Translations under genes and position numbers: made by a program
Source: Candidatus Krumholzibacteriia bacterium
Lineage (GTDB): Bacteria > Krumholzibacteriota > Krumholzibacteriia > JAJRXK01
Length of the DNA: 64,000 nt
Assembly (NCBI GenBank): GCA_029932915.1
Contig: JAOZPE010000006.1
Span: forward strand, 6,384-70,383
Reading direction: 5' to 3'
The notes under the pieces: generated by a model
Told to the model about the DNA's origin: nothing
The model's database searches: none
What the model saw: the letters and a program-made list of their open reading frames with translations, nothing else
In this document: one piece after another, positions 2,341 to 49,339 of the stretch
Layout: each line of letters starts with the position of its first letter
Position numbering within the stretch: the stretch's first letter is position 1

Positions 2341-2362
2341 ACCTCAGGTGATGGACTGAAGA

Positions 2363-2392
2363 GTGGGGGGGGCCGGGGGGGCCCCCCCCCAC
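2363..2392 (+). terminator. G/C-run hairpin, likely terminator
   Basis: GT-G8-CC...GG-C9-AC inverted repeat about 20 nt after the stop at 2340. Confidence 0.5.
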
Positions 2393-2439
2393 GACTCCAT
2401 TGCAACCACACCCCCTGCTCGACACCCAACCTGAGGCGG

Positions 2440-4236
2440 TTGATCATGAAGGCTCTCTTCGATCGTGCGGCGCATGAGCGCCGACGGGAGGGTACGGGTC
2501 TTCGGCGGCATCTTCTCCATCGTCGACCGGATCGCTCCCGAGGCTCTTCCTCCCTTCTCCATCGTCTGCTCGTCGCCCTTGTCTTGGTTTCCCTCGGTGC
2601 GCTCGTTCCGCCGGCTTCCTTCCTTTCCGATCTGACTCCGGCTTCCTTCCTGTTCGCGGACGAGGCATGGGCCGATTCTTTCGTCCTGCAGCGGCACTAC
2701 CTGGGCGAGGGACTCCTCGATCAATATGGTATCGCGGTGGCGACGGCCGGCGATGTCGACCGCGACGGTTTCGACGATTTCCTGGTCGGAGCCAACGTCA
2801 ACGACGAGGTGGCAACCAGCGGAGGCAAGGTCTACCTCTACCTGGGCGGCGTCGTCTTTCCCGACAGCACATCGTTGACCTTCGCCGGGGATCGCGAGAG
2901 GGAATACCTGGGAGGGGCAGTGGCCGGCGGCGGCGATCTCAACGGCGACGGCTACGACGACTGGGCGGTGGGAGCGCCCGGGCCCGGTGTGGACGGCAAT
3001 CTGCCGGGCCGCGTCTTCATCTTCCTCGGCGGCGATCCGGTGGACATGGTGCCCGATTTCGTCGTGGAAGGCCTGACTCCCGGCGGCCAGTTCGGCAACG
3101 CCTTGGCGATGGACGGCGACCTCGACGGCGACGGCTACGACGACCTGGCGGTGGGCGCCCCCCGCGACAGTTCGGGCGTGGTCTACCTCTTCTTCGGCGG
3201 AGCGGACTTCCAGCCGACGGCCGGCGACACCCTCTTCGCGCGCGATGTGGATGAGCGCTTCGGCAAGGCGCTGGCCTACTGGCCCGGACACGGCGACGGT
3301 GGGGCCGACGGCCTGCTCGTCGGCGCGCCTCGCTCGGGACAGTCGGCAACCTGGGCCGGCGCGGTCCTGTTGTATCGCGGAGGTCCCCTCTTCGACCGCC
3401 GGGTCGATACGATCTTCGCCGGAGAGGTGGCCGGCGATGCCTTCGGCAGCGCCCTGGATGCCTCGGCCGATCTCAACGGCGACGGCTTGACGGATCTGGT
3501 GGTGGGCGCTCCCAACGTCGATCTGCCCTCTCAAGCCGACGTGGGCCGGGCCTATCTCTTCTCCGCCGCGCCGGCGGACACCCTCTTCGATCGCAGCTGG
3601 GACGGTATCTGGGACGGGGGCTATTTCGGATCCTCCGTGGCTGCCGGCTTCGACTGGGACGGCGACGGCTTGGCGGATCTGGTGGTCGGCGCCCCCTATG
3701 CGGGGACCGAGACCACCGAAGAGGGCCGGGTCTACCTCTTCGCCGGGGGGCCGGCTCCACCCTCGGCGCCCCTGGACAGCCTGATCGGGCCGGTTTCCAG
3801 CGCCCATCTGGGAATCTCGGCCGCCGACGCCGGCGATGTTCAACACGACGGCAGAAATGCTATGATCATAGGCGGCTACAACGGTGGTGACACCGGCCGG
3901 GCCCTGCTCTACGCAGCCGCGCCCCGGGGAACCGCCGCGCCGCCGCCAGTGATGAGGGACGTGGCGCGCCTGTTGAGCCCCGTTCCGAATCCCTTCAACC
4001 CGCGGGTGGAGCTGACGCTGGAACTCCCGCGCCGGGGATGGTGGACAGTGGAGATCTTCGACCAGCGCGGTCGGAGGATCGGCTGTCTCCACGATGGGAC
4101 CCTCGACGAGGGAAGCCATCACTGGAGGTGGTCTGGACGGGACGATGGCGGCAGGGAGCTTCCCTCGGGCGTGTACTTCGTGCGGGCTCGCAGCGCCGAC
4201 GAAAGTCTGGTTCGGGCCATGACCCTCATCCGCTGA
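2440..4236 (+). CDS. FG-GAP / integrin-alpha-type beta-propeller protein with C-terminal FlgD Ig-like domain
   Basis: Repeats GDVDRDGFDDFLVGA, GDLNGDGYDDWAVGA, GDLDGDGYDDLAVGA, ADLNGDGLTDLVVGA, FDWDGDGLADLVVGA; C-terminus PNPFNP...W.GRDDGGRELPSGVYFVR. Start uncertain. Confidence 0.85.
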   Translation: MIMKALFDRAAHERRREGTGLRRHLLHRRPDRSRGSSSLLHRLLVALVLVSLGALVPPASFLSDLTPASFLFADEAWADSFVLQRHYLGEGLLDQYGIAVATAGDVDRDGFDDFLVGANVNDEVATSGGKVYLYLGGVVFPDSTSLTFAGDREREYLGGAVAGGGDLNGDGYDDWAVGAPGPGVDGNLPGRVFIFLGGDPVDMVPDFVVEGLTPGGQFGNALAMDGDLDGDGYDDLAVGAPRDSSGVVYLFFGGADFQPTAGDTLFARDVDERFGKALAYWPGHGDGGADGLLVGAPRSGQSATWAGAVLLYRGGPLFDRRVDTIFAGEVAGDAFGSALDASADLNGDGLTDLVVGAPNVDLPSQADVGRAYLFSAAPADTLFDRSWDGIWDGGYFGSSVAAGFDWDGDGLADLVVGAPYAGTETTEEGRVYLFAGGPAPPSAPLDSLIGPVSSAHLGISAADAGDVQHDGRNAMIIGGYNGGDTGRALLYAAAPRGTAAPPPVMRDVARLLSPVPNPFNPRVELTLELPRRGWWTVEIFDQRGRRIGCLHDGTLDEGSHHWRWSGRDDGGRELPSGVYFVRARSADESLVRAMTLIR

Positions 4237-4265
4237 ACGAGACATCATCAGGAGAGCCCAAGATC

Positions 4266-44736: not shown

Positions 44737-45780
44737 ATGAAGCAGGAGAACGCGAGACTTCAGGTGGCAGTGGTCGGGGTGGGGCGCATGGGCCGCCACC
44801 ACGCGCGGATCTATCACGAACTCGAGGGGGTCGATCTCGTCGCCGTGGCCGATGCCGACGCCGAACGCCGCTCGGCCCTCGCAGCCGAGTTCTCCTGCCG
44901 AGCCCACGCCACCCTCGAGGAACTCCTTCGCGAACATCCCTCGCTCGACGCGGTGAGCATCGCGACCCCCACCACCCATCACCTGGCCGCGGCGGAGGAG
45001 TTGTTGCCTCGCGGCGTCGCCTGTCTCATCGAGAAGCCTCTGGCAGCGTCCTCGGCCGATGCGGCCGCCATCGCCACGCTCAGCGCCGAGCATTCCACCA
45101 TCTGCCAGGTCGGTCACACCGAGCGCTTCAATCCCGCCGTGAGGGCGGTGACGGAGATGGATCTGCGTCCGCGTTTCATCGAGGTCGACCGGGTGGCACC
45201 CATGAGTTTCCGCTCGGTCGATGTGGGCGTGGTCTTCGATCTGATGATCCACGATCTGGACATCGTCCTGATGCTCTCGCGTTCGCCCTTGAAGGAAGTG
45301 CACGCGGTGGGAGTCGGCGTGCTGTCGGACAAGGAGGACGTGGCCAACGCGCGGCTGGAGTTCGAGGACGGCTGCGTGGCCAATCTCACTGTTTCACGGC
45401 TGGCGATGAAGACCGAACGCAAACTGCGGGTCTTCAGCGAGAAGGTCTACGTGACCCTGGACTTCGCACGCCGCAGCGGGATGGCCATCTCCACCACGGA
45501 GAACCGTGCCTCGATCGACGCGGTACGTGAGAAGCTGGCCCGCGGGGAGGATCTCTCCGATCTGGACTACCTCGCCCTGGTCAAGATGCAGCCCCTGCAG
45601 ATGGAAGAGGAAGAACCGCTGCGGGCCGAGCTGCAGTACTTCCTCTCCTGTGTGCGTGAGGGACGCAACCCGGCGATTGACGCCGAGGCGGGCCGCTCCG
45701 CGGTCGATGCCGCCGAACGGGTCGTCCAGTCGATCCGCGAACACCATTGGGAGGGATTCGAGGGCATGCGGCTGGTCTGA
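44737..45780 (+). CDS. Gfo/Idh/MocA family oxidoreductase (WlbA/GnnA-like UDP-sugar 3-dehydrogenase type)
   Basis: VVGVGRMGRHH, LIEKP, VGHTERFNP, DVGVVFDLMIHDLD. Confidence 0.88.
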   Translation: MKQENARLQVAVVGVGRMGRHHARIYHELEGVDLVAVADADAERRSALAAEFSCRAHATLEELLREHPSLDAVSIATPTTHHLAAAEELLPRGVACLIEKPLAASSADAAAIATLSAEHSTICQVGHTERFNPAVRAVTEMDLRPRFIEVDRVAPMSFRSVDVGVVFDLMIHDLDIVLMLSRSPLKEVHAVGVGVLSDKEDVANARLEFEDGCVANLTVSRLAMKTERKLRVFSEKVYVTLDFARRSGMAISTTENRASIDAVREKLARGEDLSDLDYLALVKMQPLQMEEEEPLRAELQYFLSCVREGRNPAIDAEAGRSAVDAAERVVQSIREHHWEGFEGMRLV

Positions 45781-46426: not shown

Positions 46427-47302
46427 ATGATCGATTCCGCTGCCGCTCCTCTTTCCGGTCGAGTGGTCCTGGTGACCGGTGCCAGCTCGGGCATCGGGCG
46501 TCTCGCGTCCCGCGAGTTGGCGCGCCGGGGTGCCCGGGTCACCCTTCTCGTGCGCGATCCGCAGAGGGGAGAGAGCACCCGTGCGTGGATTGAAGCCACG
46601 GGCGGTCTCGAATCACCGGAGATCCTGCTCTGCGATCTCTCCGATCTCGAACAGGTACACCGCGCGGCGGAGGAATTCCGCCGCCGTCACTCCCGACTCG
46701 ATGTCCTGGTGAACAATGCCGGAGTGTTGCAGCGTCGCCGGCGCCTCAGCTCCCAGGGCCATGAGTGGACCTTGGCGGTGAACCATCTCGGCCCCTTCCT
46801 GTTGACCCTCTCATTGGCCGATCTGATACCGTCCGGCGGGCGCATCGTCAACCTGGCCTCGGTGGCCCACACCCGCGGTCGATTCGACTTCGAGGACATG
46901 ACGCTCGAAGACGGTTATTCGATGTGGGACGCCTACGCGCGCTCGAAGCTGGCCAATGTTCTCTTCACCTACGAGCTGGCCCGCCGTCTCGCCCCCCGTC
47001 GCATCGACGTGAACGCCCTGCACCCGGGGACACTGCCGACCGGCATCGCCCGCGGACATTCGCGGGTGGCCTCGTGGCTGTGGAAGATCGTCACCCGTTT
47101 CTCCGGGCGGGTCGAGGAGGGAAGTGACGCAGTGGTGAGGCTGGCTGGCGATCCCGAACTCGAGGGAACCACCGGCCGCTACTTCTACAAGATGTCCAAG
47201 GCGGAGTCGTCACCGCAGAGCCACGACCGCCGCTTGCAGGCCGAGCTGTGGTCGTGGTCACTGAAGGCGGTGGGGCTGACCGAGGAATCCATGTTCTTGT
47301 GA
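46427..47302 (+). CDS. Short-chain dehydrogenase/reductase (retinol dehydrogenase-like)
   Basis: VTGASSGIG, LVNNAG, VNHLGPFLLT, YARSKLAN, LHPG. Confidence 0.92.
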   Translation: MIDSAAAPLSGRVVLVTGASSGIGRLASRELARRGARVTLLVRDPQRGESTRAWIEATGGLESPEILLCDLSDLEQVHRAAEEFRRRHSRLDVLVNNAGVLQRRRRLSSQGHEWTLAVNHLGPFLLTLSLADLIPSGGRIVNLASVAHTRGRFDFEDMTLEDGYSMWDAYARSKLANVLFTYELARRLAPRRIDVNALHPGTLPTGIARGHSRVASWLWKIVTRFSGRVEEGSDAVVRLAGDPELEGTTGRYFYKMSKAESSPQSHDRRLQAELWSWSLKAVGLTEESMFL

Positions 47303-47439
47303 ATGCACCAAGGTATTCTCAATGCGTACATTTTTGTGTGCTGGCCCAGAGTGCGGCCGTTTTCTGGAATACGTATCTGTTGCCGTATCACGTCAAGATC
47401 AAGATACAGACCGAGGAAGAGCCGGAGCTGCTTCCTCCA

Positions 47440-47480
47440 TTGACATGACTTGGCATTAGTTGTAGTTGTCCCAGTAGAAT
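47440..47480 (+). promoter_or_regulatory. Candidate sigma70 elements for the islet operon
   Basis: TTGACA at 47440-47445 and TAGAAT at 47475-47480. They are not at canonical spacing to each other, so the assignment is tentative. Confidence 0.3.
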
Positions 47481-47518
47481 TCAGTAGGTTTTCTCGCCTT
47501 CCACGCAGGAAGTACACG

Positions 47519-48150
47519 ATGAAAGCGAGAATCCTGAACCCCTTCCTTCCTTCCTTCCTTCCTTTGCCCAGCTGATCATCCTTGTAGGACTTTCCATAGT
47601 TCCGAGTCTTTCTGTGGCAAGCTGTACCACCTGTACAGCACGGGATGGACACGTCTACTGTACTGGTGGTTGCCAGGCGGAATTGTGCCAAACTACTGGC
47701 AACTCCTGCTTGTTTTCTGGATCAAGGGATTGTTGTGGTGGGGGCTGCTTCTTGGCCACTACGCGTATTCTCACTGCCAGAGGACTGATTCCGATTTTCG
47801 CGCTTCGCGAAGGTGACACGGTTCTTACACAAGATGAAGCAGGAATGTTGGTTGAGGCAAGAGTAACCCGCACATACAAATCCGTATCATTTGACGGATA
47901 CTACCGGATCAACGGCGACCTAGGTGTTACGGGAGAGCATCCATTCAAGGTGGGTGGGCGGTGGGTTCCGGCAAAGGATCTTCGAATCGGGGATGTGCTC
48001 ACTGCGTCAGATGGATCATCGGTGAGAATCAAATCTCTCATCAAGATCAACAAGGCGGTTCGGGTATATAACATCGACACCTCTGGGCCGAATACGTTCT
48101 GTGCTGGTGGCTTATTGGTTCATAACAAGGACGGACAGGTTCAGGGATGA
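47519..48150 (+). CDS. Frameshifted (putatively phase-variable) secreted Cys-rich peptide-Hint fusion
   Basis: As written, ATG 47519 stops at 47575 after 18 aa. With 4 or 7 CCTT units it reads MKARILNPFLPSF(LPSF)AQLIILVGLSIVPSLSVA-SCTTC...DCCGGG-CFLATT...VYNIDTSGPNTFCAGGLLVHN-KDGQVQG. Hint domain 47746-48126. Confidence 0.82.
47541..47564 (+). repeat. (CCTT)6 simple sequence repeat inside a signal-peptide coding region
   Basis: Six perfect CCTT units, 22 nt downstream of ATG 47519 (RBS AGGAAG). Confidence 0.92.
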
Positions 48151-48180
48151 TGAGCAAGAGCTTAGTCATCTCGTGAGCAG

Positions 48181-49233
48181 TTGGTAGACTTGGGTCTAAC
48201 GTCTGAAAGGAGTTGGCCATTGCGAGGCGTATCCATCACATGTCTGGCATTCATGTTGCTTTGGGCTATCCCGTCCGAAAGACCAGCGTTGGCATCGAGC
48301 TTCCCATCCATCGTGCTTGAGGAAGACATGGTGCTTGGCGATGAGGTTCGTGAGATGATAGGCGTCGTCTCAGGAGTTGTCGAAGATTCCAAACATTTCA
48401 TCTATATTGCCGACCTGGGCTTTCAACAGATCCAGAAGTATTCCCCAGAAGGTGAACTTGTCGATGTCTTCGGATCAGTTGGAGAGGGCCCAGGTGAGCT
48501 GATGTTTCCGTTCAGCATGACCATCAGTGGTCGTGATGAGCTGTATTTTGCTGGTCCAGGTGGTCGTGTGACCATCTGGACCACTGAGGGAGATTTTGTC
48601 AGGGAATTTCGCCGCCTTCATCCTGACGGAGACGCCAAGTCGATCCGCGTGGCAAGAGATGGAAAGATTTTCATTGCTGTTCTGGACATTTTGGAACAGA
48701 CGGTGATCGATGTGTATTCTTCGACGGGAGAGTACATCAACTCATTCGGGCATTCCTATGCTGTTGGTCGGGATGTTGATGCGCGAACGGAATCCTTCGT
48801 TGGAGGGGGCAGTTTGGATCTCATGTACAATGGGATGGTTGCATACACGCAGCAAGCTCCCTACCAAGTGGTTATCTTCAAGCCTACTGGAGAAAAGGTC
48901 TTCGAAAGCGTCGAAGGTGGCGAGGGTTTCGTTGAACTGCCTCCGGAGCCGGAGTATGGGAAGAAAACTTTCAGGATGGGTTTGACAAGCTCATCAGTGG
49001 AGATCACGTGTCTTGGCAATCGTTTGCTCAACTGCGCAATCCGTGGGATACAGGAACAGGAGAACAGAGAGACCCTATTGACACTCTATGATGATCACTT
49101 GAAGCTGTTGGCCCGCACGGTGTTGAAAGGTTTCAAGATTGTGGTTGGGAAGGATGCAGAGGGAAGAGTGTTCATCTTCTCGGAAGATGGTGACGTTCCA
49201 CAGGTGCGAAGAGCACGTTTGAGCGTGCAATAA
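48181..49233 (+). CDS. 6-bladed beta-propeller (NHL/TolB-like) exported protein
   Basis: Hydrophobic N-terminus; IYIADLGFQQIQKYSPEGELVDVFGSVGEGPGE; further ..G.F...F blade repeats. Start 48181 (TTG) or 48253 (ATG). Confidence 0.85.
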   Translation: MVDLGLTSERSWPLRGVSITCLAFMLLWAIPSERPALASSFPSIVLEEDMVLGDEVREMIGVVSGVVEDSKHFIYIADLGFQQIQKYSPEGELVDVFGSVGEGPGELMFPFSMTISGRDELYFAGPGGRVTIWTTEGDFVREFRRLHPDGDAKSIRVARDGKIFIAVLDILEQTVIDVYSSTGEYINSFGHSYAVGRDVDARTESFVGGGSLDLMYNGMVAYTQQAPYQVVIFKPTGEKVFESVEGGEGFVELPPEPEYGKKTFRMGLTSSSVEITCLGNRLLNCAIRGIQEQENRETLLTLYDDHLKLLARTVLKGFKIVVGKDAEGRVFIFSEDGDVPQVRRARLSVQ

Positions 49234-49339
49234 TTTGTGACCCCAGTGACCCGTCTGGCATCCTACGGCGGTCAATCGCCCCATTCATACATCACCATGG
49301 CATGGCGCCACTGCACAGCAAGCCAGCTAGCGTTTCACC

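Follow-up and report, generated by a model that had tools for sequence, protein, structure and literature searches.

Why should a gene for a putatively exported protein carry its only start codon with a ribosome-binding site out of frame with most of its own coding sequence? This question is raised by a locus in a 64,000-nt stretch of metagenomic DNA from a Candidatus Krumholzibacteriia bacterium (GenBank assembly GCA_029932915.1, contig JAOZPE010000006.1, positions 6,384–70,383; hereafter the window), a locus that is also matched in public metagenome runs from hydrothermal vents and marine sediments. Here, a (CCTT)6 microsatellite lies between ATG 47519 and an open reading frame (ORF) that encodes a cysteine-rich peptide followed by a Hint autoprocessing domain (Table 1). 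We consider it likely that this tract is a functional, reversible frameshift switch, operated by slipped-strand mispairing in the DNA for the leader peptide, of which the window would represent the OFF allele with n = 6 units.

The 5′ region of the gene reads AGGAAGTACACG - ATG AAA GCG AGA ATC CTG AAC C - (CCTT)6 - TGCCCAGCTGA, with the tract forming codons 8–15 of the ORF that opens at ATG 47519. The original prediction held that this ATG, preceded by AGGAAG, runs into a stop at 47575 after 18 amino acids, which can be read directly from the sequence: the reading comprises 18 codons and yields the peptide MKARILNPFLPSFLPLPS. It further held that the frame of the Hint protein is open only back to the TAG at 47485 and has no start supported by a ribosome-binding site. 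Inspection of start codons and Shine-Dalgarno sequences agrees with this, as the frame is open from 47488 (TAG at 47485–47487), reads PLPSFLPSFAQLIILVGLSIVPSLSVASCTTC and ends in a double stop (48148–48153), with no ATG, GTG or TTG upstream of GTG 47614 and no purine-rich Shine-Dalgarno sequence 5′ of this GTG. When the frames were computed for different repeat numbers, n = 4, 7 and 10 each gave one continuous ORF (207, 211 and 215 amino acids, respectively), which is the fusion that had been foreseen for four or seven units; n = 3, 6 and 9 gave a peptide of 14–22 amino acids, and n = 2, 5 and 8 an out-of-frame product of 93–101 amino acids. Since 3 and 4 are coprime, the tract reads as a single cycle, (P-S-F-L)n, in all three frames of this strand, with no stop codon in any of them; units can therefore be gained or lost in steps of three with the signal peptide unharmed. 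A repeat scan of the 64 kb confirmed that no other long perfect tetranucleotide repeat is present: none elsewhere exceeds three units, and the next microsatellites measure 12 nt. From base composition, ~3e-7 perfect 24-nt tracts of period 4 would be expected by chance in a sequence of this length.

The number of repeat units does vary in nature. Among sources that are otherwise at least 99.5% identical, we found alleles with five, six and seven units, the shortest of which is interrupted. Six units (OFF, 18-residue peptide) are present in the window and recur in three further assemblies, each from a different metagenome sample, namely a 7,984-nt contig of SRR21545388 (L007/X1), an 8,441-nt contig from a sediment run of 2017 (X2; 3 single-nucleotide polymorphisms (SNPs) in ~7 kb) and a 29-kb contig of the Joint Genome Institute (L055; 99.97% identity over 12 kb). 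The seven-unit allele (ON, 211 amino acids) comes from another vent sample of the same study (run X5), in which a 196-nt contig with a depth of 6.5 spans 47461–47652 and is identical to the window except for one additional CCTT. Five units, interrupted as (CCTT)3-CCGT-CCTT, occur on an NCBI metagenome scaffold (L056); this allele is OFF and gives a 97-residue out-of-frame product that gene callers have annotated. Over ~2 kb of the low-GC island (GC, guanine plus cytosine content) in which the gene resides, this scaffold differs from the window by four mutations, two of which fall within the 24-nt tract, and across 5 kb in four runs a CCTT unit is the sole indel listed. Repeat number and SNP background are not congruent, since the sediment contig of X2 carries SNPs 47922G and 48140C, as do the seven- and five-unit haplotypes, but has six units. 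The CCTT tract is therefore a hotspot for indels, with natural alleles of both the ON and the OFF type. Contigs of X3, X4 and X8 break at or near the tract, which might have pointed to heterogeneity, but we discarded this evidence: these runs, like X5, are fragmented across all 5 kb, so that the breaks carry no information. Run X5 itself resembles a proximity-ligation library, with GATC junctions.

Further evidence comes from an orthologous cassette (P0002/P0155; 62% protein identity), which we found on five contigs, drawn from four or more different assemblies or runs. The original prediction would have been weakened by orthologues that lack the repeat and start at the equivalent of GTG 47614. 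Instead, the orthologous gene starts at an upstream ATG, MKSRNTSFLPSFL (in a longer reading, MKSRNTSFLPSFLICFF...ATA/SCTTC), has GGAGG 8 nt 5′ of this ATG, and shares the N-terminus MK[A/S]R with the window gene. It also keeps the repeat, as a perfect, in-frame tract of 22 nt, (CTTC)5CT, in the same codons as the tract of the window. Outside the tract, the mature coding sequences of the two genes are 61% identical at the nucleotide level, with third positions at 33% (saturated), and the probability of 22 nt surviving unchanged is ~2e-5. That both lineages should have a perfect tract in this position while their silent sites are saturated therefore calls for selection or, alternatively, for ongoing slippage that maintains a uniform repeat. 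Read at the protein level, ~38 other full-length relatives contain no FLPS-type repeat. The sediment run X2 holds both cassettes, the window type with n = 6 and the orthologue (61% identical) on a 2,641-nt contig (L059), and the two hosts therefore coexist.

To what kind of protein does the tract connect its start codon? A profile search of 1.84 billion representative proteins returned many single-domain relatives of ~200 amino acids, and ~40 of the matches were read in detail. Their common layout consists of a signal peptide, a CxxC motif with more cysteines over ~45 residues, a glycine linker, a Hint domain running from its Cys to ...LVHNK, and a short tail, which often ends in PxPxG. The N-terminus of the window gene, once restored, reads MKAR-ILNPFLPSF(LPSF)-AQLIILVGLSIV-PSLSVA/SCTTC. 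It has a charge of +2 (MKAR), a core with a maximum 9-residue Kyte-Doolittle mean of 3.14 (family range 2.1–3.9), and small residues at positions −3 and −1 (S-V-A, then S). By charge, core and cleavage site, the in-frame alleles are predicted to carry a Sec (type I) signal peptide, an assignment based on sequence features and the family alignment; as had been proposed, it ends at the cysteine-rich peptide, which matches the ~40 relatives. In these, the signal peptide ends 0–3 residues ahead of the first CxxC, and this motif is found at residues 15–42, compared with residues 33–37 in the restored forms (37 for n = 7). The remainder of the signal peptide (47565–47619) is reached from ATG 47519 only at n = 4, 7 or 10. 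Gene callers place the start at GTG 47614 (P0001) or at an internal Met. The GTG form begins two residues before the mature N-terminus, has its first CxxC at residue 4 and lacks the hydrophobic segment. The residues VASC at the end of the signal peptide literally fit a lipobox, and processing by signal peptidase II is possible.

The Hint domain is assigned by two Pfam models, PT-HINT (PF07591; 2.7e-12, 47.6 bits against a cut-off of 27.7) and PF13403 (33.7 bits against a cut-off of 28.4), and 2LWY, a bacterial intein-like (BIL) domain, is the solved structure with the closest sequence (8.9e-15). The protein resembles BIL and other Hint domains in its Cys1 nucleophile, T-x-x-H block and terminal His-Asn, and the catalytic residues are invariant in a three-way alignment and in the family (Cys1 of GGGC/FLA, T..H of VTGEH and HN of LVHN). 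In all members, the residue after the terminal Asn is Lys, and the protein ends 5–10 residues later; in the window it ends seven residues past the Hint domain, and we found no Pfam domain beyond Hint. Because Lys, rather than Cys, Ser or Thr, follows the Asn and no toxin domain lies downstream, the protein is neither a splicing intein nor a pretoxin-HINT toxin. Its cargo would be a cysteine-rich peptide of 42 residues, and the order of an N-terminal secreted cargo followed by a Hint domain recalls Hedgehog/Hog proteins. The cysteine-rich segment has eight cysteines in the window and six in the orthologue, the extra ones being at mature positions 18 and 39. Structure prediction for the orthologue with a three-sequence alignment gave a mean predicted local distance difference test (pLDDT) score of 46, too low for the model to be usable.

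A repeat in a like position is found in a distant member of the family (L020; Ga0214472_10209873, 612–703), which is ~37% identical and lies on a contig of 63% GC. There, GGAGGA is followed after 5 nt by ATG 624 and then directly by a perfect heptanucleotide repeat, (TCCCAGC)5. In the assembled sequence, this start and the Hint ORF are in different frames; with four or seven units they would join into a protein of 261 or 268 amino acids, and the restored N-terminus is predicted to be a signal peptide containing RRR. The repeat would be an independent, analogous switch. In total, 5′ repeats are present in 2 of the ~13 family lineages whose 5′ regions we inspected at the DNA level, which is suggestive of recurrent on/off control of the family. 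We also examined truncated family calls as potential hidden OFF alleles and rejected them, as they reflect a mis-called start (P0120), an in-frame TAG (P0112) and frameshifts outside repeats (P0075). The non-repeat lesions near 5′ ends in the family comprise an in-frame TAG inside the signal peptide (L063, ~370–470) and frameshifts in the cysteine-rich part (L062, ~1870–2000), where a T10 run also lies beside an upstream TTGACA.

From these observations, a mechanism can be proposed. The charged start MKAR precedes the tract and the hydrophobic core follows it, and slipped-strand mispairing during replication would add or remove units of 4 nt. At n = 4, 7 or 10, ATG 47519 would be in frame and translation would produce a pre-protein composed of the signal peptide, the 42-residue peptide with its eight cysteines, the Hint domain and the seven-residue tail. 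This pre-protein would be exported, and an N-S acyl shift in the Hint domain would presumably cut the Gly-Cys junction, freeing the cysteine-rich peptide. At any other n, the sole start supported by a ribosome-binding site would lead into a short or out-of-frame product, and no exported protein would be made. We infer that slippage during replication underlies the unit changes, which would be reversible over ecological time, that selection keeps the tract as a bet-hedging switch, and that the Hint domain frees the peptide. Because the tract has only six units, the switching rate is probably low, at 1e-5 or less per generation.

Such a mechanism is of a known kind, and by analogy its nearest counterparts are the repeats in the leader DNA of Neisseria opa and autA/autB. 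In opa, CTCTT repeats in the DNA for the leader peptide vary at ~1e-3 per generation (PMC3960869). Like the CCTT tract, they lie in coding sequence, consist of pyrimidines only and have a unit length that three does not divide; they are located in the 5′ end that encodes the signal peptide, where the number of units sets the frame on or off; in both cases, the leader tolerates the hydrophobic or small residues encoded by the repeat in any frame. The opa repeat, however, is a pentamer with more units and a measured rate, found at multi-copy loci of a host-restricted pathogen and controlling an outer-membrane adhesin, whereas the repeat described here is a tetramer of 5–7 units at a single locus of an uncultured sediment/vent bacterium and belongs to a small autoprocessing protein. 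In autB, AAGC repeats in the DNA for the signal sequence range from 3 to 19 units and vary within a clonal complex, and most strains are OFF with the gene intact (PMC5118866). The likeness to autA/autB of Neisseria and Haemophilus lies in a tetranucleotide repeat just 3′ of the start codon, within the signal sequence; as in autB, the locus is mostly OFF (n = 6), its ORF is intact and the ON allele is rare. Both the motif (AAGC) and the cargo (an autotransporter) differ, and phase variation of autA/autB is backed by expression data, while the case made here is one of allele comparison. In Haemophilus influenzae, tetranucleotides are the main class of repeats, varying at ~1e-4 per generation (PMC2651432). 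Its lic, lgtC, hgp and mod genes likewise use tetranucleotide slippage in the 5′ coding region as a translational switch; their tracts are usually much longer and form a genome-wide set, compared with one such tract in the 64 kb analyzed here.

Several points weigh against a working switch. The four n = 6 sources are at least 99.9% identical, separated by 1–3 SNPs per 7–12 kb, and all have one tract length, which argues against a high switching rate or for selection on that OFF length, and all five contigs of the orthologue have a single tract length as well. Our allele comparison covers assembled contigs only, which drop minor variants. Six units are also short beside the well-studied Haemophilus tracts, and the 64-kb window contains, apart from a C9 run, no second candidate repeat locus, so that no genome-wide set of switches is indicated. 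A realistic guide to the rate of six units is icaC of Staphylococcus aureus, a similarly short tetranucleotide tract, in which slippage of (ttta)3-6 is reversible and occurs less than once per 45,000 divisions (PMC4117637); this tract differs in its location in the 3′ part of the gene, where it truncates a membrane protein, and not in a signal peptide. Together, the n = 6 length shared by four near-clonal sources and the short tract suggest a rate that is low relative to classical contingency loci.

The same points bear on the strongest alternative, in which the tract is an incidental slippage polymorphism or a step in early pseudogenisation, with n = 6 and n = 5 as loss-of-function alleles of a dispensable acquired gene and a reversibility that is not selected. 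We regard this as unlikely, although it would account for the identical n = 6 in four near-clonal sources and for an L056 allele that is both a unit shorter and interrupted. It fits less well with an in-frame n = 7 allele that coexists in the same study, or with an OFF ORF that is otherwise intact, having no second stop or frameshift and all of its Hint catalytic residues. Decay would also be in keeping with a cassette that forms a foreign low-GC island and with a short tract, as short tetranucleotide tracts slip rarely (PMC4117637), but not with a perfect tract in the same codons of two cassettes whose silent sites are saturated. Finally, the plain 5′ lesions in other members (the in-frame TAG of L063 and the frameshifts of L062) speak for decay, and the distant third member with its independent 7-nt repeat in a like position speaks against it.

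Could the six-unit allele be expressed regardless, either because ribosomes undergo programmed −1 frameshifting in the vicinity of the tract or because they initiate at GTG 47614? No stop interrupts the downstream frame between 47488 and the end of the tract, and gene callers did pick this GTG (P0001), but we consider such expression very improbable: the ATG frame contains no slippery heptamer of the form X XXY YYZ between 47519 and 47575, RNA structure in the 5′ region is not significant (z = +0.9), and GTG 47614 has no Shine-Dalgarno sequence and would yield a product without a signal peptide, unlike every full-length relative. A separate idea, that the tract sequesters the Shine-Dalgarno sequence (CUUCCU being complementary to AGGAAG), was rejected, as the folds are no more stable than those of shuffled sequences (z = +0.9 for the window and z = +1.3 for the orthologue); in the folded RNA, the Shine-Dalgarno sequence pairs with an upstream CCUUCC (47497–47502) and not with the tract. 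Least credible of all is a sequencing or assembly artefact in which units of a truly in-frame gene were miscounted, since low-coverage contigs that break at or near the tract (X3, X4, X8) are uninformative in runs that are, with X5, fragmented throughout, and n = 6 recurs in the window and three assemblies from different samples and years at 10–14x depth, with a 24-nt tract far below read length and below k = 31; the consensus error that the original prediction had named as a refutation is thus not borne out.

A slipped-strand switch in the leader DNA remains the reading we prefer, and it would have several implications. What is known of phase variation through slippage at repeats comes almost entirely from host-adapted pathogens; the bacterium concerned here is an uncultured, high-GC inhabitant of marine sediments and vents, and with ON and OFF alleles recovered straight from metagenomes the locus is a well-documented candidate. 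Annotation is affected as well, in that a start called at GTG 47614 or at an internal Met misses the signal peptide and makes the protein look cytoplasmic. The locus also draws attention to a sizeable, unnamed family of ~200 amino acids that combines a signal peptide, a cysteine-rich peptide, a Hint domain and a partner gene for a beta-propeller. The Hedgehog-like layout suggests, by analogy, that Hint chemistry matures a secreted peptide, and on/off control suggests that producing this peptide is advantageous only part of the time.

Table 1 Features of the Hint and beta-propeller locus in window coordinates
Feature	Position	Strand	Basis or remark
Left edge of the low-GC two-gene island	47303–47339	.	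Directly after stop of short-chain dehydrogenase (SDR) gene at 47302; GC profile
Shine-Dalgarno-like AGGAAG	47507–47512	+	6 nt 5′ of ATG 47519; read from sequence
Putative true start codon and truncated leader ORF, OFF allele	47519–47575	+	MKARILNPFLPSFLPLPS then TGA 47573–47575
(CCTT)6 microsatellite, candidate frameshift switch	47541–47564	+	Tandem Repeats Finder: x6.0, 100% matches
Predicted signal peptide remainder: hydrophobic core AQLIILVGLSIV, cleavage region PSLSVA	47565–47619	+	Frame of the Hint ORF
Cysteine-rich segment, 42 aa, 8 Cys, SCTTC...DCCGGG; presumed released cargo	47620–47745	+	Family-wide layout
Hint/bacterial intein-like autoprocessing domain, Cys (CFLATT) to His-Asn (LVHN)	47746–48126	+	Pfam and PDB match
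Seven-residue tail KDGQVQG and stop codon	48127–48150	+	Read from sequence
Predicted secreted 6-bladed beta-propeller, NHL/DUF5128-like	48220–49233	+	Probable start TTG 48220 after AAGGAG
Terminator-like hairpin, cassette end	49213–49228	+	Consensus scan only

The gene shares its island (47303–~49339, ~2 kb) with the beta-propeller gene alone. The island has ~51% GC in a genome of 65% GC, and the drop spans 47300–49300. The beta-propeller, with the predicted signal peptide MRGVSITCLAFMLLWAIPSERPALA, is 65% identical to the partner gene in the host of the orthologue (L057) and 30–34% identical to DUF5128 genes that adjoin Hint genes in L003, L005, L006 and L008; overall, a homologous propeller partner lies beside the Hint gene in five or more additional lineages (L003/L005/L006, L008, L057, L061 and L064). 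In a related genome (L054, 14031–14100), whose neighbouring genes have 72–91% protein identity to those of the window, the SDR and aldo-keto reductase genes lie ~60 bp apart and the island is absent. In the host of the orthologue (L057, 1611–3808), the same pair forms an island of ~50% GC in a context of 57–66% GC with different neighbours, an HD-GYP-type gene and an AIRS-family gene. The Hint and beta-propeller pair has the appearance of a small mobile cassette of two genes that lacks recognisable ends. The island flanks contain no convincing repeats, whether direct or inverted, and no DNA similarity is seen between the regions upstream of the two cassettes. Among species-representative genomes, no copy was found by protein patterns, by the flanks of the locus or by a DNA pattern combining the tract with CxxC. 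On the scaffold L056 (1–783), which also holds the n = 5 tract and an N run, the left flank is a partial IS3-family DDE transposase ending in ...CCACA and not the SDR gene; it abuts window position ~47354, ~165 bp 5′ of the ATG.

The CCTT tract is found in two cassettes saturated at silent sites, a distant member has its own (TCCCAGC)5 repeat immediately behind the start codon, and the propeller gene of one cassette contains a G9 run. In view of this recurrence, we tentatively raise the possibility that the Hint and propeller genes make up a small mobile cassette encoding a secreted factor that is costly or risky (a bacteriocin-like, signalling or receptor-exposing peptide, for example), and that uncultured sediment bacteria have repeatedly brought it under stochastic control by repeats. 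If true, recurrent repeat control would mean contingency loci in free-living deep-sea lineages that control an uncharacterised protein family.

The G9 homopolymer lies in the propeller gene of the orthologous cassette, where it encodes GGG (L057, 3376–3384; L058, 4131–4139); at the corresponding site of the window (~48790–48800), the run is broken and reads GGAGGGGGC. A second G9 is located in L057 (6045–6053), in a gap of 171 nt between HTH_8 and LNT genes. In L008 (3388–4287), the Hint gene is followed by a gene for a PDZ and thioredoxin-like (AhpC/TSA, Redoxin) protein, an arrangement that would suit a secreted, cysteine-rich peptide in need of disulfide handling.

Elsewhere in the window, a cluster of G/C homopolymers, G8-CC-G7-C9 (2365–2390), lies near the low-coordinate end of a minus-strand ORF (2344–4248), and its G7 and C9 runs could pair as a hairpin. 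Compared with the window, contig L055 is without ~100 nt (45301–45400) inside a GFO_IDH_MocA oxidoreductase gene, which is called at 313 amino acids instead of 347; the contigs of X1 and X2 match the window at this stretch.

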